Below are positions 2,343 through 26,099 of a DNA stretch of 48,763 nucleotides, piece after piece. Location: assembly GCA_017480995.1 (NCBI GenBank), contig JAFUQJ010000051.1:1-48763 (forward strand), read 5' to 3'. Numbering within the stretch: the first letter of the stretch is position 1; the number at the start of each line of letters is the position of its first letter. A program made the translations under genes and the position numbers. Under the pieces are notes generated by a model. That model ran no database searches. It was not told the DNA's origin and was given only the letters and a program-made list of their open reading frames with translations. Source of the DNA: Alphaproteobacteria bacterium (GTDB lineage Bacteria > Pseudomonadota > Alphaproteobacteria > RF32 > CAG-239).

Positions 2343-3653
2343 ATGAAGAAAAAAATCACAAAAACATTGGTCGAGAGCGCGGCGACTCCGCAAAATTCAA
2401 AACTTTTAATCTGGGATGAGACAATTTCCGGATTCCATGTTGTTATACGTCCGAGCGGGCGCAAGAGTTTCTATGCTGTATATCGACTGCGTAATCACAA
2501 ACAACAACGTTTGAAGCTTGGCGATTTTCCGGCCATGACGGTTGAGGAGGCGCGCGAAAAATGCAAGGCACTGATGAACCAGGCCTTTGACGGTGTGGAT
2601 CCTTTGGCTGTTATTCGCGAACGCGCAAGGCTTGAAGAGCCGGATCCGGCCAAAAACGGCACGATGCGCGACCTGTATGCCAAATATATGGCCGAGCATG
2701 CGATTTTTAAGAAACCGGCGAGCCGCAAGAACGACGTTATTTACTGGGAAAGGCATATTTTACCGAGAATTGGCGACAAACGCGTGCGCGAGGTCACCCG
2801 CGGTGACATTTCGGCCATCCATAAGGGAATCGGCGCCGAGCTGAACCGCAAGGGCGAACTGATGAAGACGACAGCCAACCGCGTGCTTGAGGTTTTGAAA
2901 AAGGCTTTTTCCCTGGCCGAGGAATGGGAATGGCGGCCGGAGGGCTCCAATCCCGGGGCGCGGATTAAAAAGTTCAAGGAACAGGCCCGCAACCGATATC
3001 TGACACTTCAGGAAGCGGCGGCTCTTGACAAAGTTCTGGTGAAATATCTCGATGCCGGATATCGCGAGCGGCAGGTTGCGCGGCTGGTTCTGATTTTGCT
3101 TTTGGTCGGCGGTCGCAAGCAAGAGATAAGGAATGCCCGCTGGGAATGGGTTAATCTTGAGCGCGGCGTTTTATCCCTGCCGGACAGCAAGTCAAACGAG
3201 CCGCAGGATATCCAGCTGCCGGACAAAGTTTTGGATATTTTGGCGGATATTCGCGAAGATCAGCGGCGGAATAATCGGGAAAGCGACTATATTTTTGACG
3301 GGCACGTTCGCGGCCAGCCGCTTAAAGACGAGGGCAAGCATTGGGACAACATCCGCGCCGAGGCCGGTTTGAAAGATTTCCGCATGCACGATCTGCGCCA
3401 CAGTTTTGCCTCGTACATGGCCATGGCGACAGGATCCGAGCTGATGATCCAGCAAAGCCTGCGGCACGCTGATGCCAAAACGTCGAAACGCTACACCCAT
3501 ATGTTTAATGAGCCTTTGCGTTCGGCGGTCAATCAGACGGCCGGAAAAATTATCGAGGCCATGCGCGGCGATAAAATCGTTGATTTTGAAACGGCCAAGC
3601 AAGCACACCGCAAGGCTAACGACCGCGGTCAGGTGTCCGAACAGACTGCGTGA
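2343..3653 (+). CDS. int: tyrosine integrase (P4-type, tRNA-targeting)
   Basis: N-terminal arm-binding-like region (ISGFHVVIRPSGRKSFYAVYR). C-terminal HDLRHSFAS ... RYTH catalytic motifs. Confidence 0.9.
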   Translation: MKKKITKTLVESAATPQNSKLLIWDETISGFHVVIRPSGRKSFYAVYRLRNHKQQRLKLGDFPAMTVEEAREKCKALMNQAFDGVDPLAVIRERARLEEPDPAKNGTMRDLYAKYMAEHAIFKKPASRKNDVIYWERHILPRIGDKRVREVTRGDISAIHKGIGAELNRKGELMKTTANRVLEVLKKAFSLAEEWEWRPEGSNPGARIKKFKEQARNRYLTLQEAAALDKVLVKYLDAGYRERQVARLVLILLLVGGRKQEIRNARWEWVNLERGVLSLPDSKSNEPQDIQLPDKVLDILADIREDQRRNNRESDYIFDGHVRGQPLKDEGKHWDNIRAEAGLKDFRMHDLRHSFASYMAMATGSELMIQQSLRHADAKTSKRYTHMFNEPLRSAVNQTAGKIIEAMRGDKIVDFETAKQAHRKANDRGQVSEQTA

Positions 3654-4092
3654 GGCTGTTCAGAAACTTGACAACTCCCTCTTTGGCCATAAGGTCGGCT
3701 AAGGCGTTATTGATGGCTTTAAATTGATAGTGACCGGTGTGAGCCTTGACTTTTTCGATTTTTAAGCCCTGCGGGGCGATTTGGTTGATACGGTATGCCC
3801 ATTTGCGGCATTCGAGCCGGTTTTTCTGCTGTTTTGGCGTGAGGGGGCGGTCTTTGATATTGTCGGAAATGTAGGCAATGGCGTTTTGGCTGTCGGTGTA
3901 GAGCGTATGCGGCCCGGGATATTGCTTGATGAGTTCAAGAGCATAATATATGGCGTAGAGCTCGCCGATGTTGTTGTTTTCGGCCTTAATCCATTTTGAA
4001 AAGATGCGGCGCTGCTGTCCGCAGATGATGACACAACCGATTCCGGCAACCCCGTGTTTTTCGTTGAAGCTGGAATCGGTGTATATTATCAT
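3616..4092 (-). CDS. RNase H (type 1) domain protein
   Basis: MIIYTDSS...GIG...GELYAIYYAL...LYTDSQ...KAHTGH resembles the RNase HI DEDD pattern. ATG 4092 overlaps the spanin stop (ATGA). Confidence 0.75.
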   Translation of the reverse strand: MIIYTDSSFNEKHGVAGIGCVIICGQQRRIFSKWIKAENNNIGELYAIYYALELIKQYPGPHTLYTDSQNAIAYISDNIKDRPLTPKQQKNRLECRKWAYRINQIAPQGLKIEKVKAHTGHYQFKAINNALADLMAKEGVVKFLNSLTQSVRTPDRGR

Positions 4093-4280
4093 TTTTCGCA
4101 CCTGCAGGCTTTGATGACGAGTTCCTGACAGTCAAATCCGTTTTCAAGGTCAAGAACGGTTTGTCCGCGCTCACAGGTGTTGACCGGGCAGCAGTTGACA
4201 GGCACATATTTAATGTTGGCCGCGCAGCTGGCGACGGCAAGCACTGAGGTCAACAGAATACAGAGCTTTACAATCCGCAT
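4089..4280 (-). CDS. o-spanin-like lipoprotein (Rz1-like)
   Basis: Start at ATG 4280 after GGGAGG. MRIVKLCILLTSVLAVASC lipobox. Start is embedded in the i-spanin ORF in another frame. Confidence 0.65.
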   Translation of the reverse strand: MRIVKLCILLTSVLAVASCAANIKYVPVNCCPVNTCERGQTVLDLENGFDCQELVIKACRCEK

Positions 4281-4485
4281 TGAGGTTTGCCTCCCTTTGT
4301 TTGAGTTTTTGCTTTTGGTTTTCGAGCGTTTCGGTGTTTTCAATTTTGCACATGGCCGCCCGGACGGCTTTCTTTTGATAGATAGCTTCGGCTGCGGCAT
4401 AGCCTTTGTCGTAGATGAACATTGCACCCCAGAAAAGCACGACAGCTACGATAATGACGACGGCAATAACGGCTCGTATTCTCAT
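4210..4485 (-). CDS. i-spanin-like protein (Rz-like)
   Basis: N-terminal TM helix, then a charged coiled-coil-like region. ATGA overlap with the endolysin stop. Confidence 0.65.
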   Translation of the reverse strand: MRIRAVIAVVIIVAVVLFWGAMFIYDKGYAAAEAIYQKKAVRAAMCKIENTETLENQKQKLKQREANLNADCKALYSVDLSACRRQLRGQH

Positions 4486-4955
4486 GCGTCCACCTCTTTG
4501 GCCAGCTGGACAAGCCGGTTTTTCCAGCCCTCGCGGAATGTCGGCCAGCTTTTGGCCTCGGTGTAGGCATAAAGCCGGTTAATCATAAAAACCGTGTAAA
4601 TGCTGTTTTTTGCTTGACGGGCAGCGGCTCTGGTTTCCTGCCCGATGACACCGTCGGCCGTAATGCCGAGGCTTTCCTGCAGGATTTTAACCGCCTTTGT
4701 AACGCCGTGATTGACGGCGGTGTCAAACAGCATGATATCGAGCGGGTACGGGATTTCCTCGCACTGGGCTTTATCCCAATAATCGCGCTTGTATATGGCA
4801 ATGGCGTCGGCTTTGGTCAGGCTGGCGATGTCAAGACCGGGATAGGCGGCCTGGCTGATGCCGTATTTGGTCAAACCTCCGGCATCGTCTTTGTGATCAG
4901 ACAGAATGCCTTCTTTTTCAAGCGTCAAATTAACAGCGGTTTCAAAATTATTCAT
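4482..4955 (-). CDS. endolysin, GH108 with peptidoglycan-binding domain
   Basis: LEKEGILSDHKDDAGGLTKYGI ... YWD ... DTAVNHG ... ADGVIG pattern. Start ATG 4955 after AAGGAG. Confidence 0.8.
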   Translation of the reverse strand: MNNFETAVNLTLEKEGILSDHKDDAGGLTKYGISQAAYPGLDIASLTKADAIAIYKRDYWDKAQCEEIPYPLDIMLFDTAVNHGVTKAVKILQESLGITADGVIGQETRAAARQAKNSIYTVFMINRLYAYTEAKSWPTFREGWKNRLVQLAKEVDA

Positions 4956-5694
4956 AGCGGTTCTCCTTGATTTGCTGTCCGTCAAAAGCCAGGCCGGTGA
5001 TGCGTCCGTTGATCATCAGGCCGAATTTTTCGACGTCCATAAACATTTCGTAAAAAAATACCCACCAGGTTTTGACTACCTCGATCGACATTTCGTCAGA
5101 TGATAGCAGCTCACGCAATAGCCCGACGTGCGACGACATCCAGACCTTGAACATCTCGTTGATGTAGGCGATTTTGTCCTCGCTCCAGTTTTCACCGCTT
5201 AACTTTTGGCGGACGACTTTTTGAACGGCGTCGATAGCGCCGCAGGCAATATGATGGTGGGTTTTGCGGTAGCTGGTGAAGTCCTCGTTTTTGATTTTGC
5301 CCTGCCGATAGTCATTATACATGGTGGTGAAGCCCTTAAAAAAAGCCTCAAACATGGTTTTGACAAGGTATTGATAAAAGCGGTTGCGGCCTGGATCGCG
5401 GTCAATTTGCAGATCCGAGATGCGGCAGATGAGCCCGTAGATCTTTTCGGCAAATTTCTCGTAGCGCAAATCGCACAGTTCAATAACTTCGAGCTGGCGC
5501 TCGGCTTTGGCGCGATATCTGCCGGAGCAATGCCGGAGGATAACCGACCCGAGGCGGCGCAGGGGTTGCTCATATTTTATCCAGGCCAGCACACCCAGGC
5601 AAAACAGGGTTATCGCCAGCAAAAGCCAAATAAACGGGTTGCCCTCTGCCAAAAGCATGACGATGTTATCCCAGTTTAGCCTGATGTCTGACAT
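4948..5694 (-). CDS. membrane protein of unknown function (upstream of endolysin)
   Basis: One N-terminal TM helix (FIWLLLAITLFCLGVLAWI), then a helical soluble part. Position fits a holin or lysis regulator but its size is atypical. Confidence 0.5.
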   Translation of the reverse strand: MSDIRLNWDNIVMLLAEGNPFIWLLLAITLFCLGVLAWIKYEQPLRRLGSVILRHCSGRYRAKAERQLEVIELCDLRYEKFAEKIYGLICRISDLQIDRDPGRNRFYQYLVKTMFEAFFKGFTTMYNDYRQGKIKNEDFTSYRKTHHHIACGAIDAVQKVVRQKLSGENWSEDKIAYINEMFKVWMSSHVGLLRELLSSDEMSIEVVKTWWVFFYEMFMDVEKFGLMINGRITGLAFDGQQIKENRYE

Positions 5695-5700
5695 TTTCCG

Positions 5701-6075
5701 CTACTCCGTCAATTCTTCAACTTCTTCAATCGTAAAACCGAGACGAAAGATTTCGGCGTTCGGATCTTCGACAAGGGTAAAAATTGACCATTTTTCCGGC
5801 TCGCCATCTTTGGCCGTGTTGATCAGTCTTGAGTTTTCGCCGTTGTCGAGCTCGGCTCTGGCGGCGGCATTGGCGGCAATAGTCTCGTTTTCTTCGGCCT
5901 CGGTGGCGCCGTCCGGTACGGGAACCGGCTCAAAAACCTCGCCGCTGTCTTTCCAGATAAAGCGGTCGGCGGCCAGAGAGCGCAGGCGTTCTTTTGCCTG
6001 GTCCGTGTATTCGGGGTCGGCCAAAAGGTTCAAATAGTCTTGTTTGGTGCAGAAAATTTTAGGAAATCCTCTCAT
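5701..6075 (-). CDS. hypothetical acidic protein downstream of the DGR RT
   Basis: 124-aa ORF, tightly packed in the RT operon. No motif recognised. Confidence 0.55.
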   Translation of the reverse strand: MRGFPKIFCTKQDYLNLLADPEYTDQAKERLRSLAADRFIWKDSGEVFEPVPVPDGATEAEENETIAANAAARAELDNGENSRLINTAKDGEPEKWSIFTLVEDPNAEIFRLGFTIEEVEELTE

Positions 6076-6089
6076 TTTTTTGTGTCCTT

Positions 6090-6440
6090 TCAGATGATTT
6101 TGAGCGCGCGGTCATCTTTGACAATCGTGCCGACACGCGGCAGTTTGTCTTTGAAAACTTCGAGCGTTTTGGTTATGTTTTTAGACTGCGTGAAAAATAT
6201 ATGCTTTTCGCCGTCTACAATGATTTGCACCTTGGTCACGGATTCGCCGAAACGCTTGTATTGACTGGGTGCAACGCTAAAATCCACGAAGACAATCTTT
6301 TTGTTCAAAAGCTTGTCAACGGGGATTTTCGAGCCGACAAAGCCGCTTTGCTCATTTGATTTTCTGAGCATTTCCGGATCATCGGCAAAAGCCGGATAAT
6401 TGTCATAATCTGGCGAGGATGTCATTTGCTGTTCTTGCAT
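6090..6440 (-). CDS. hypothetical protein overlapping the RT 3' end
   Basis: 116-aa ORF overlapping the RT by up to 38 nt; start uncertain. No motif recognised and not Avd-like by eye. Confidence 0.5.
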   Translation of the reverse strand: MQEQQMTSSPDYDNYPAFADDPEMLRKSNEQSGFVGSKIPVDKLLNKKIVFVDFSVAPSQYKRFGESVTKVQIIVDGEKHIFFTQSKNITKTLEVFKDKLPRVGTIVKDDRALKII

Positions 6441-7446
6441 TTTTTGAGGCCTCTCTTAACCGGTCAAGATCAAGTTTTATTCGCAGATTGTATGTTTTTG
6501 CCCATTTCATCCAGCCGTCATAACTGGCAATGACCGAACGAAACTGCTCAGCCGTTATTTTGTGCCGGTGCAGATTGTAGACGGCTTTTTTGATGCGTTT
6601 GCGCGCTCTTTTGGCTGTTGACTTGCGCAGCAGTATGTATTCCGGAAAATGGCGGTAACCCAGAAAATCAACACCGCGGCTGACGGGAAAAAGGTCGCAT
6701 TTGCTCATGCGGAGCCGGAGCCTGTCGGTTAAAAACTGCCTGATTTTGGCGGCGGCATCGTTCAAAACTTTTTTGTCGTTGTGAAAAAGGCAAAAATCGT
6801 CGCAATAGCGCAGGTAGCATTTGATTTTGAGCTGATGCCGGACAAACTGGTCAAGCTCATTCAAATACAGATTGCCAAACCATTGGCTGGTGAAGTTACC
6901 GATCGGCGTGTTGGTTTCGCCGGGAAAGCTGTCAATAATGTCATCAATCAGCCACAGGACGTCTTTATCTTTAATTTTGCGGCGGACGATGCTTTTTAAA
7001 ACATCGTGGTTGATGGACGGATAAAATTTTGAAATATCGCATTTCAGGCAATATCTGTTGCCGCGGATATATTCCATTGTCTTCAGGCTGCCCTTGTGCA
7101 TGCCTTTGTTGTCGCGGCAGGCGTAGGATTCCGCAATAAACAGATTATCCCAAATCGGGATTAAAACGTTCATTACCGCGTGCTGGACAATACGATCGGG
7201 GTTAAACGGCAAAATATAAATAGTCCGGCGTTTGGGTTCAAAAACGGTTTTGGTGCTGTAATGCGCCGTTGTGAAGGTCTTGTTGACCAGGCTTTGACGT
7301 ATTTTTTCAAGATTGTTTTCCAAATCGCGGTTAAAGAGACGCACATTGCGCTTTTTGCCCTTGCCGAGCTTTGCCTGCTCATAGGACAAGCGGATGTTTT
7401 CTTTGGTGATGACACTCGGCCACAAATTTCCGTATCTTTTAACCAT
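6403..7446 (-). CDS. DGR reverse transcriptase
   Basis: RT domain with IGNFTSQ (DGR hallmark [ILV]GxxxSQ) and YCDD catalytic motif. Lies beside the TR/VR pair. Confidence 0.9.
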   Translation of the reverse strand: MVKRYGNLWPSVITKENIRLSYEQAKLGKGKKRNVRLFNRDLENNLEKIRQSLVNKTFTTAHYSTKTVFEPKRRTIYILPFNPDRIVQHAVMNVLIPIWDNLFIAESYACRDNKGMHKGSLKTMEYIRGNRYCLKCDISKFYPSINHDVLKSIVRRKIKDKDVLWLIDDIIDSFPGETNTPIGNFTSQWFGNLYLNELDQFVRHQLKIKCYLRYCDDFCLFHNDKKVLNDAAAKIRQFLTDRLRLRMSKCDLFPVSRGVDFLGYRHFPEYILLRKSTAKRARKRIKKAVYNLHRHKITAEQFRSVIASYDGWMKWAKTYNLRIKLDLDRLREASKNARTANDILARL

Positions 7447-7526
7447 TTCAATCCTTATTTTGCAGAAGCCGGGGTTTCGTTTTGGGCTACTAGCCCGGCA
7501 TTGCCTCCGTTTTTGTGTTTTGCCGA

Positions 7527-7554
7527 CTGCGGTTCCCGTTGTCCGGGCGCGCGG
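7527..7554 (+). repeat. inverted partial VR/TR-like segment (fold-back partner of TR)
   Basis: ctgcggttcccgttgtc is complementary to 7664-7680 (16 of 17). gcgcgcgg is complementary to 7612-7619. Confidence 0.7.
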
Positions 7555-7606
7555 TGCGACATGGATAAATATCTCAGCCGGAGTTATCCAAGAGGATTAA
7601 ACCGTA

Positions 7607-7802: not shown

Positions 7803-9290
7803 CTAGTTTGGCATCCTCTTTGGCAGGCTCCGCCCGCGCGCGCCATTAGCGACATACGCAAGCGAAAGCGAATGATCCGCAATGCGACAACGGGAACCGC
7901 AGTCCGAGGAACTGGCCCAGCGGCCCCCCGCCAGAAGCACCATACAGGAGCCGTAGAACGAACCTTCGTCGCCGTTCTGGCTGTTCCAGTTCGCACCGCC
8001 GGCGGCGTGAGTTTCGGCCAAATGTTGCCATTGCAGGCCGCACATTTCCTCACAACCTATGTTTGATACCATTCTGCGGCCGGCTGTGTCGCTGTGGCCT
8101 CCGGTTGTGTCCGGGCTCGGCTGTTTGGAGCCGCTGACAACGGTTTTTTGGTTGCTGCCTTTGGACGCCGAATAGAATTCTTCATCATGCAATAACGTTT
8201 TTTTGACCGAGCGCTGGTCATCCACAAAATCAAAGTGCATTCTGGTGTTGGCTCGGGTGCCGCCGTAGACCGATTTTGTGTTGGCGCCGGTGCCGGACTG
8301 ATTATAGATGTCAACCCAGACATCATTAACGTCGTCATAAACCATGCCTTCCGGCTCGGATATCGGCCGGTGGTTTAAGCACCACACCGAGGCGGGCAGA
8401 ATGTCGCCGGCAACGTAACCGGACAGCGGATGACCCGAGATTGTGCCGACATTGCTGCATTCGGTGTGAAATCCGCCGATTTTGCGCGAGTTGTCCGCCG
8501 AATATCCGCCCGGATAGGTAGAGTTGAGCGAAACAACAAATTTTGTGCCATTGTCGCCTTCCGGTACCAAAAAGATGTGATAGTCCTTGCCGGCCGAGAA
8601 TGACGCGCCGGAATCCATCAGCGACTGGCAGTTGATAACTTCATCCGAGGTTTGCTGGCGCCAGCGTGACACGCCGTCGACTTCCAGACGGATGATACTC
8701 CCCGCCTTGATGGTGATGTTGCGCTTGCCGTTGACGACCAAAAACGGGTTGACCTGGAAGAAGGTGTCATAATTGGCCACGCCCGAGGTTTCGTAGGAGG
8801 TTGAGATGAACTCCCAGTAATTCCCTGCGGCGTTCCAGGAAAATTCCACTATGGCGCCGGTTAAGAGGTCGCCGGAGCTTAAATCTGCGGTGCCGGCATA
8901 TTTTTTTGCCGGTTTGGCACCGGTGCCGTAGGCGTTGATGGTTGCTGAGCCGCTGTTTGGGTGAACGACCTTGAAACGGATGCGCTGTCCGTCGGTTAAG
9001 GCGCTGTATTGTACCTGCCCGGTTGACGACAGCACATAAACGTTGGCCGCGGATGACGAGGCCTCTGCGCAAAAGTCGGAAATGGTGGCGGCCTCAAACA
9101 AAGCGGTGCCGAGCTGATTGTTGGCCTCTGCCGGCGTCATGCCCAGTTTGGTGATGGCCGCGACGATTTCACGTTGCGGATTTTCAAGAGCTCCGGCCGG
9201 AATGATTGAACCTTCCTGTCCGTTGGCAGGGTCCGCATTGACGTATATAGCGTCTGGATCTTCGGAATTTAAAGGCGGTGTGTATTTCAT
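7803..9290 (-). CDS. tail fibre / receptor-binding protein, DGR target
   Basis: Tail-fibre position after the baseplate genes. C-terminus CMVLLAGGRW..DCGSRCR..GARG looks like a CLec/FGE-type fold and contains VR1. Confidence 0.85.
   Translation of the reverse strand: MKYTPPLNSEDPDAIYVNADPANGQEGSIIPAGALENPQREIVAAITKLGMTPAEANNQLGTALFEAATISDFCAEASSSAANVYVLSSTGQVQYSALTDGQRIRFKVVHPNSGSATINAYGTGAKPAKKYAGTADLSSGDLLTGAIVEFSWNAAGNYWEFISTSYETSGVANYDTFFQVNPFLVVNGKRNITIKAGSIIRLEVDGVSRWRQQTSDEVINCQSLMDSGASFSAGKDYHIFLVPEGDNGTKFVVSLNSTYPGGYSADNSRKIGGFHTECSNVGTISGHPLSGYVAGDILPASVWCLNHRPISEPEGMVYDDVNDVWVDIYNQSGTGANTKSVYGGTRANTRMHFDFVDDQRSVKKTLLHDEEFYSASKGSNQKTVVSGSKQPSPDTTGGHSDTAGRRMVSNIGCEEMCGLQWQHLAETHAAGGANWNSQNGDEGSFYGSCMVLLAGGRWASSSDCGSRCRIADHSLSLAYVANGARGRSLPKRMPN
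7829..7941 (-). repeat. DGR variable repeat VR1
   Basis: 17 mismatches to TR, all at TR adenines (manual alignment). GC-rich IMH-like 3' end ggcgcgcgcgggcgg. Confidence 0.9.
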
Positions 9291-25786: not shown

Positions 25787-25891
25787 CTTCTGGCAGGGGG
25801 CGCCTGGGACAGATCCTCGTACTGCGGTTCCCGCAGTCGCTTTGCGTGGGGTTCGCTTTCGGACACGTCTGTCTATACTGGCGCGCGCGGG
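25787..25891 (+). repeat. orphan VR-like cassette VR3
   Basis: Gapless match to sense TR positions 5-109. 17 adenine-site and 5 other differences (manual). Hairpin at 25912-25931 follows. Confidence 0.8.
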
Positions 25892-25944
25892 TTGATCCGT
25901 GCCAAAGGGATCTTTTGCGAACACGCAAAAGAGGCGGCCTGTAT

Positions 25945-26054
25945 GGTGCTTCTGGCGGGAGGCTCCTGGGACATTTCCTCGGATTGCGGTTCCCGCTGTC
26001 GTACTGCGGACAATTCGCTTTCGGTTGCGTATGGCAATTATGGCGCGCGCGGGC
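25945..26054 (+). repeat. orphan VR-like cassette VR4
   Basis: Gapless match to sense TR positions 1-110. 13 adenine-site and 5 other differences (manual). Hairpin at 26071-26096 follows. Confidence 0.8.
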
Positions 26055-26099
26055 ATATCCGCCAAAATAACTTTTTCTTCCCTTGGAAGTAAAAAGGCA

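Follow-up and report, generated by a model that had tools for sequence, protein, structure and literature searches.

Two small protein families as candidate accessory factors of an Avd-less clade of phage diversity-generating retroelements

We analysed a 48,763-nucleotide stretch of DNA from an alphaproteobacterium (GenBank assembly GCA_017480995.1, contig JAFUQJ010000051.1, positions 1 to 48,763; here called the window), which is the whole of contig C136 of a metagenome-assembled genome (MAG) of 1.49 Mb that is 84% complete. A Mu-like, myovirus-type prophage fills most of the window, with its integration site adjoining a tRNA-Met gene, and this prophage carries the diversity-generating retroelement (DGR) that is the subject of this report. 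The reverse transcriptase (RT) of the DGR is a member of a large clade of phage RTs whose loci lack the accessory protein Avd. Here we describe two protein families, ORF116 and ORF124, named after the two open reading frames (ORFs) that follow the RT gene in the window, and examine whether they might act as accessory factors in this clade.

Layout of the prophage DGR

The DGR lies on the minus strand in the order Mtd-like fibre gene with its variable repeat (VR), 83 bp, template repeat (TR), 160 bp and RT gene, and the two small ORFs come after the RT gene, as follows (pI, isoelectric point).

7803-9290, minus strand: Mtd-like tail fibre gene, the DGR target, 495 aa (PF21916 mtd_2nd, 5.4e-25; phrog_11262 tail protein, 1.9e-53)
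7829-7941, minus strand: VR, in the 3' end of the fibre gene, ending 24 nt before the fibre stop codon
7607-7719, minus strand: TR, 83 bp past the fibre stop codon
7447-7606, minus strand: noncoding spacer of 160 nt between the TR and the RT gene, with a partial inverted match to the TR at 7526-7543
6403-7446, minus strand: DGR RT, 347 aa (PF00078, 3.4e-18; phrog_1423, 5.7e-119)
6090-6440, minus strand: ORF116, overlapping the 3' end of the RT gene by 38 nt
5701-6075, minus strand: ORF124, pI 4.3

A first-pass annotation, made from the sequence by eye, had described this layout, with its two short gaps, the ORFs downstream of the RT gene and an ATGA overlap further along the same run of genes, and we found each of these features where it had been placed. 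The TR and VR are 113 nt long and 85% identical, and 17 of their 17 differences fall at adenines of the TR. The TR copy of the VR sequence sits 222 nt downstream of it and, read in the VR frame, contains many AAY codons. An adenine-specific TR/VR pair, a DGR-type RT beside the TR and a VR at the 3' end of an Mtd-type target are all present, and the phage DGR of the window, which is of the Mtd type, is complete and apparently active. No ORF with a family match was found in the spacer at 7447-7606, which presumably corresponds to the 3' part of the DGR RNA, by analogy with the Sp region of BPP-1. ORF116 has a Shine-Dalgarno-like sequence of its own (AGAGAGG) 9 nt ahead of its ATG.

Three further TR/VR-like copies, 77 to 82% identical to the TR, lie on the plus strand between the terL and portal genes (24547-24659, 25787-25899 and 25945-26061). 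Some of their differences fall off adenines, and no long ORF lies upstream of them.

The prophage DGR has no Avd of its own

The first-pass annotation had seen no Avd-like gene in the window, and searches with profile hidden Markov models (HMMs) led to the same result for both Avd and HRDC. True DGR Avds score 24 to 34 bits with PF05635, at or below the cut-off of that model, as against 98 to 143 bits (1e-28 to 1e-42) with PF22296 (bAvd-like). We therefore redid the Avd searches with PF22296, which detected the positive controls BalMu-1, phiARM81mr and VP58.5 at 1e-32 to 1e-43; Avd censuses that use PF05635 alone will under-count. Six-frame searches of the whole assembly with PF22296 and PF05635 gave no match on the window contig, and a six-frame search with HRDC (PF00570), the accessory domain of architecture C, gave none in the window, its matches being confined to contig C113 (a 394-aa protein) and, weakly, contig C24. 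PF22296 was likewise negative on 40 whole viral records of the window RT clade and on vir525 (BK063673), the GenBank phage with the closest RT (55% identity); 11 of the records are at least 90% complete. The window cassette thus falls outside the BPP-1-type arrangement (architecture B), in which avd is part of the cassette.

Divergent Avds hidden behind ORF116 or ORF124 were considered and rejected. Against an alignment of 10 Avds, hhalign returned probabilities of 0.07% for ORF116 and 0.27% for ORF124, hmmscan of the two proteins against all of Pfam gave no Avd match, and the predicted folds described below are not those of Avd. The hhalign result and the predicted beta fold together imply that ORF116 is not a diverged Avd.

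The assembly contains a single PF22296 match, on contig C34 (60 bits, above the cut-off). The gene lies beside a second RT gene, so that the prophage DGR could in principle borrow a host bAvd in trans. We found that the C34 gene belongs to a second, chromosomal DGR of the same MAG, with a cassette of its own consisting of a TR (approximately 6912-7023), a 445-aa RT and an overlapping 115-aa Avd (C34:6900-8712) and with a VR on another contig (C108:686-797). The TR of this DGR is unrelated to that of the prophage, and its RT forms a very long tree branch far from the phage RT. Since no match occurs in the window and the C34 bAvd is part of a separate DGR, we conclude that Avd is not encoded by the prophage cassette. 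Furthermore, no Avd was found in the 40 related phage records, which come from many environments and include the 11 complete ones; a phage of this kind cannot rely on its host to supply one, and Wu et al. (2018; PMC5758913) likewise saw no avd genes acting in trans. Borrowing in trans is accordingly a most improbable explanation.

The final 250 nt of C34 (C34:8730-8982) consist of a dispersed repeat, pieces of which, 77 to 98% identical, occur on more than 30 contigs of the MAG; the repeat is probably why the assembly breaks there.

ORF116 adjoins the RT gene in many phage backgrounds

The first-pass annotation had proposed the two small ORFs as candidate accessory factors. We compared two samples of viral loci: set A, 79 IMG/VR loci that bear a TR/VR pair and a window-type RT (54 to 81% RT identity), sampled from the RT side and clustering with the window locus by RT, and set B, 80 loci with RTs of the BalMu-1/phiARM81mr/VP58.5 type. 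A homolog of ORF116 directly follows the RT gene in 72 of the 79 set A loci, with a median gap of 11 nt. An Mtd-like target ends no more than 1.2 kb upstream of the RT gene in 69 of 70 related loci, and the genes that come next downstream are so varied that 88 loci yield 62 unrelated context groups. The same picture was obtained from the ORF116 side, where an RVT_1 gene adjoins the ORF116 homolog in every context read (loci L003, L004, L006 to L020 and L190 to L192) and the genes beyond the pair vary (lysis genes, HNH, methyltransferase, structural genes and terminase). Because the RT-ORF116 pair is constant and the downstream genes are not, the conserved unit is target-TR-RT-ORF116, often followed by ORF124.

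The ORF116 family comprises 81 clusters by profile search and 1,215 cluster-50 representatives (E ≤ 1e-3) by exhaustive HMM search, and none of the representatives is annotated. Searches of Pfam, NCBIfam and PHROGs with ORF116 matched only phrog_19665, a family of unknown function, and tblastn, run on 50,697 phage records with a threshold of E 0.01, found nothing. The homolog in vir525 was reached only through the neighbourhood of its RT gene. The gene order there is that of the window: an Mtd-like target, a gap, the RT gene, a 95-aa ORF that overlaps the end of the RT gene and is 29% identical to ORF116 (E 3e-12) and an 82-aa ORF that is 45% identical to the N-terminus of ORF124.

Two rearrangements further tie ORF116 to the RT. 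In L015 to L017, the order is ORF108 (the ORF116 homolog)-TR-RT, with a classic TR of the LLAGGNWNN type in the 287-bp gap, which places the homolog in the position that avd holds in avd-TR-RT cassettes. In other proteins, the two are fused. The ORF116 profile matches residues ~342 to 450 of RTs of 436 to 451 aa in L021, L023 and L024 (E ~1e-14), and P0252, P0306 and P0265 (507, 420 and 281 aa) consist of RVT_1 followed by an ORF116 domain at the C-terminus. The earlier proposal thus gains support for ORF116, whose family is tied to DGR RTs across phage backgrounds, is found fused to them and, as described next, does not occur together with Avd. Both ORF116 and ORF124 proved to be associated with DGR RTs in other genomes, against dozens of unrelated phage backgrounds.

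ORF116 and Avd do not occur together

Avd was found in none of the 79 set A loci and in 78 of the 80 set B loci, the two set B loci without it both being on truncated contigs. Conversely, ORF116 occurs in 72 of 79 set A loci and in none of the 80 set B loci. In an RT tree of 87 rows, one branch with a Shimodaira-Hasegawa-like approximate likelihood ratio test (SH-aLRT) support of 99 separates 58 Avd-less rows, the window RT among them, from 29 Avd-type RTs. The distribution of Avd requires a single change on this tree, and all ORF116 and ORF124 states lie on the 58-row side.

Predicted fold of ORF116

An AlphaFold2 model of ORF116 (6090-6440), built from a 28-sequence alignment, reached a predicted local distance difference test score (pLDDT) of 84.9 and gave a beta-barrel resembling the oligonucleotide/oligosaccharide-binding (OB) fold. 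The elements follow one another as b1-b2-b3-helix-b4-b5 (strands at residues 48-58, 67-75 and 78-84, a helix at 87-95 and strands at 102-109 and 112-115), which is the OB-fold order; five strands and one helix make no four-helix bundle. The N-terminus is disordered and acidic (pI 4.05), the barrel part has a pI of 9.9, and the family median is 7.8.

Foldseek found no significant match to the model in the PDB. The best was DUF2500 (E 0.044), and the weak matches (E 0.04 to 0.4, TM-scores of 0.26 to 0.5) included the OB proteins Teb1 OB-A, hSSB1, HIN domains and LEF-3. In BFVD, the best matches were RT-domain proteins (E 2.5e-7), and phage single-stranded DNA-binding proteins (SSBs) followed at E 5e-3 to 8e-2. 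When profiles of the ORF116 and ORF124 families were run on PDB sequences, nothing was found. The order of elements in the ORF116 model fits that of the OB-fold SSBs and RT processivity factors, such as phage SSBs and Teb1 OB-A of telomerase, whose barrel of five strands has a helix separating the third strand from the fourth; ORF116 differs from them in having no sequence similarity to Pfam, NCBIfam or annotated PHROG families. That ORF116 is an OB-like nucleic-acid binder is a reasonable, if tentative, reading of the model.

ORF124, a second DGR-linked family

The ORF124 family, with 305 clusters, is larger than that of ORF116 with its 81. Its members are 80 to 125 aa long, with a median pI of 4.9, and they share an invariant start, MRG[FY]P...TK.DY.N, and a conserved C-terminal motif, E-D-x-N-A-E-x-F-R-L-G-F. 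No match to ORF124 was found in Pfam, NCBIfam or PHROGs. Its AlphaFold2 model (5701-6075; pLDDT 92.7) has a mixed alpha/beta fold that is not a four-helix bundle, and Foldseek against the PDB found no fold match or structural neighbour (best E 0.18).

Of the 79 set A loci, 38 have ORF124 after ORF116, 6 have it directly after the RT gene without ORF116, and 8 have it upstream of the target. In two complete genomes, L038 and L101, an in-frame fusion joins it to the C-terminus of the RT, and these fusions argue for a tie to the RT. In 8 of the 11 complete set A genomes it is present as a single copy, always at the DGR, and none of the clade's complete genomes lacks both ORF116 and ORF124. The suggestion that ORF124 might be an accessory factor is in keeping with this linkage to DGR RTs and with the two fusions. 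Judged by its distribution, ORF124 would be a second, facultative DGR-linked factor, with a looser tie than that of ORF116.

Do the two families serve the RT?

Several observations weigh against a working role of these proteins with the RT. Sets A and B represent two clades, so the two-by-two table of Avd and ORF116 amounts effectively to one evolutionary event. The ORF116 state, moreover, requires at least six changes on the RT tree, with approximately six losses within the clade. Three complete genomes, L030, L038 and L101, have neither Avd nor ORF116, and their TR/VR differences are still adenine specific (21 of 23, 19 of 19 and 12 of 12, respectively), which implies that ORF116 is not indispensable in every lineage. 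The OB assignment comes from a model whose best PDB match has an E value of 0.044, with TM-scores of 0.35 to 0.5. ORF124 is absent from 3 of the 11 complete set A genomes, and two Avd-type DGRs, L173 and L186 (2 of the 80 set B loci), have it upstream of their targets. Given that ORF124 is found beside targets, those of Avd-type DGRs included, it may be tied to the Mtd-type target no less than to the RT, or even in place of the RT.

These points raise the question of whether the RT clade might need no accessory protein at all, as in architecture A of Wu et al. (2018; PMC5758913), with ORF116 and ORF124 being passengers, for example, proteins that help to assemble fibres or serve as adaptors and that accompany Mtd-type receptor-binding genes. 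Such an explanation would accommodate the shifting position of ORF124, which besides its place upstream of the target in the 8 set A loci and the two Avd-type DGRs lies three genes upstream of mtd in L021 to L024, and it would accommodate the adenine-specific VR change in the three complete genomes without ORF116. With an Mtd-like target in 69 of 70 loci, linkage to the target is also hard to separate from linkage to the RT. However, the in-frame C-terminal fusions of ORF116 and ORF124 are to the RT and not to the fibre, and ORF116 stands in an ORF-TR-RT order in L015 to L017. In addition, ORF116 is found in none of the 80 Avd-type loci, even though tail fibres are presumably diversified in many of them too, and it overlaps the RT stop codon in the manner typical of coupled subunits. 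We consider the passenger explanation unlikely, and we think that ORF116 probably works together with the RT. In five of the six ORF116 losses, an ORF124 homolog lies directly after the RT gene or is fused to it, which hints that the two proteins may be partially redundant.

RNase HI and the other neighbours of the cassette

The genes downstream of ORF124 continue on the same strand as far as an RNase HI gene, and the prophage ends beyond it.

4948-5694, minus strand: ORF248, with a single N-terminal hydrophobic helix, overlapping the start of the endolysin gene
4482-4985, minus strand: GH108 endolysin
4210-4485, minus strand: i-spanin of an overlapped spanin pair
lipobox start at ~4280, stop codon at 4089-4091, minus strand: o-spanin of the same overlapped pair
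3616-4092, minus strand: RNase HI (PF00075, 3.9e-18, positions 2-143), whose ATG overlaps the spanin TGA as ATGA
2343-3653: integrase, at the prophage end, convergent with the RNase HI gene
1954-2030: tRNA-Met, beside the prophage integration site

The genes for the RT, ORF116, ORF124, ORF248, the endolysin, the spanins and RNase HI are tightly packed on one strand, and no convincing intrinsic terminator was found between genes in this minus-strand run. On the other side of the cassette, the baseplate genes (Mu gp45, gp46, Baseplate_J and gp48), also on the minus strand, precede the 495-aa fibre gene, in an order that is homologous in L004.

The first-pass annotation had also listed the RNase H as a candidate accessory factor; it could act by clearing the RNA template from the cDNA. 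DGR RTs have no RNase H domain (Wu et al., 2018; PMC5758913), the gene is on the same strand as the RT gene and ATGA-coupled to the spanin gene, and on reading the sequence we found the catalytic motifs intact (YTDSS, GELYA, TDSQ and ADLMA). The gene nevertheless lies 2.3 kb and six genes from the RT gene, at the attachment end of the prophage, and its homologs by phmmer are confined to the near-identical prophages L004 and L007. The next closest relative, L003, does not have the gene, and PF00075 gave no match above the cut-off in 41 related DGR phage records, of which 11 are at least 90% complete. The host, moreover, has an RNase H-like gene of its own on contig C85. A role of the RNase H in the DGR is therefore very improbable, and we dismiss it as a false lead.

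Searches of Pfam, PHROGs and NCBIfam with ORF248 found nothing, and its conservation is limited to the near-identical prophage L004; it is possibly a holin or a lysis regulator. Neither it nor the lysis genes are conserved beside the cassette, and together with RNase HI they appear to be neighbouring late or accessory genes of this prophage and not parts of the DGR.

Elsewhere in the window, a phage tRNA cluster on the plus strand (23940-24427) contains tRNA-Met, tRNA-Pro and an 89-nt tRNA-like gene whose anticodon was not named by ARAGORN (Rfam tRNA score, 45 bits).

Comparison with known DGRs

The DGR described here is of a known kind; its proposed accessory arrangement appears to be new. 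As in the BPP-1 DGR (mtd-VR, avd, TR, brt), the target is a tail fibre of the Mtd type whose VR is C-terminal, the TR lies shortly before the RT gene, the TR/VR differences are strictly adenine specific and a small gene adjoins the RT gene. In contrast to BPP-1, the window phage has no avd between target and TR or elsewhere, and its small gene follows the RT gene and overlaps its 3' end. The product of this gene is predicted to be an OB-like barrel, as opposed to a four-helix-bundle pentamer, and the acidic ORF124 is additional. The two RTs fall on opposite sides of the branch with SH-aLRT support of 99.

Like Avd and bAvd-like proteins, ORF116 has a length of roughly 100 to 130 aa and is encoded beside a DGR RT, in variable order (before the TR or after the RT gene), and the basic character of its barrel (pI 9.9) is what a nucleic-acid binder would be expected to show. 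In place of four helices, ORF116 has a predicted all-beta core with one helix, and hhalign gives the pair a probability of 0.07%. We know of no reported RT-Avd fusion, whereas ORF116 is found fused to RTs. The family median pI of ORF116 is 7.8, compared with 9.5 for Avd (Wu et al.; PMC5758913).

In the survey of Wu et al. (2018; PMC5758913), avd was present in 74% of DGRs and absent from 26%, architecture A, which has no accessory gene, made up 29%, and one lineage was without avd; "Avd-independent mutagenic homing" was suggested for some organisms. Approximately 20% of RTs had unexplained C-terminal extensions of up to 150 aa, and the minor accessory genes were HRDC, MSL, CH1 and PAG1-4. The window DGR shares its target-TR-RT core without avd with architecture A and the avd-less lineages of that survey. 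Reviews and later papers name these four accessory classes alone, and neither an OB-fold accessory protein of DGRs nor any other new one turned up in full-text literature searches.

Of the described accessory proteins, CH1 (Wu et al.; PMC5758913), which is found only in avd-less DGRs, resembles ORF124 (pI 4.3) in being small and acidic. CH1 is 160 to 169 aa long and limited to Bacteroides lineage 3a, whereas the relatives of ORF124 are 80 to 125 aa long and come from phages of many environments. Taking CH1 to be small, acidic and limited to DGRs that have none of avd, HRDC and MSL, we note that ORF124 is strongly enriched in the Avd-less clade yet occurs in 2 of the 80 Avd-type loci. ORF116 or ORF124 may yet coincide with CH1 or with one of PAG1-4, the PAG genes themselves being tenuous.

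Small ORFs were also seen beside the RT genes of other phages. In L107 (crAss-like phage cr55_1, MT774376; 2920-4564), the RT is annotated as 441 aa, with a C-terminal extension of ~90 aa, and is overlapped by a 111-aa ORF. The record has no match to the Avd, ORF116 or ORF124 profiles and is perhaps another Avd-less solution. Among Avd-type phage DGRs, a small ORF without a family match follows the RT gene in L106 (3959-4303; VP58.5 gp21, which overlaps the RT gene) and L105 (4017-4298; phiARM81mr p60); both are unrelated to ORF116 and ORF124.

Discussion

Taken together, these results lead us to propose, tentatively, that ORF116 and ORF124 form a previously undescribed accessory system of a large clade of phage DGRs, one that docks on the C-terminus of the RT and replaces the Avd pentamer in handling template and primer. 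In the mechanism that we envisage, ORF116 is made by translational coupling to the 3' end of the RT gene and would give the RT a partner of about 100 aa, whose core would be a basic OB-like beta-barrel behind a short acidic N-terminal tail. It would bind the RT at the C-terminal thumb end, the site of the covalent join in the natural fusions, and would hold single-stranded nucleic acid, either the spacer of the DGR RNA or nascent cDNA. In this way, ORF116 would serve its RT as the basic Avd pentamer serves that of the Bordetella phage. ORF124 would be a second, facultative partner, mostly encoded after ORF116, at times fused to the RT and kept by the RT in most lineages that have lost ORF116.

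The steps of this proposal differ in strength. Binding to the RT, binding to nucleic acid and a need for the proteins in mutagenic homing are properties that we infer from sequence comparisons. That the two proteins jointly take over the mechanistic role of Avd is possible, and we put it forward with less confidence than the partnership of ORF116 with the RT.

To our knowledge, everything known about the mechanism of DGRs comes from RT-Avd complexes. Yet Avd is missing from at least one-quarter of the DGRs found in nature, whose mechanism has been an open question since the survey of 2018 (PMC5758913). The present results identify two widespread families, with about 1,200 cluster representatives and at least 300 clusters, respectively, that are tied to RTs within a single large clade of Avd-less phage DGRs. 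The families would provide two new markers for annotation pipelines such as myDGR and for Pfam, and the natural RT-accessory fusions could serve as compact single chains in DGR-based mutagenesis tools. If the proposal is true, fusions to ORF116 and ORF124 would explain part of the C-terminal extensions of DGR RTs, and the two proteins would represent the long-postulated "Avd-independent" route of mutagenic retrohoming.

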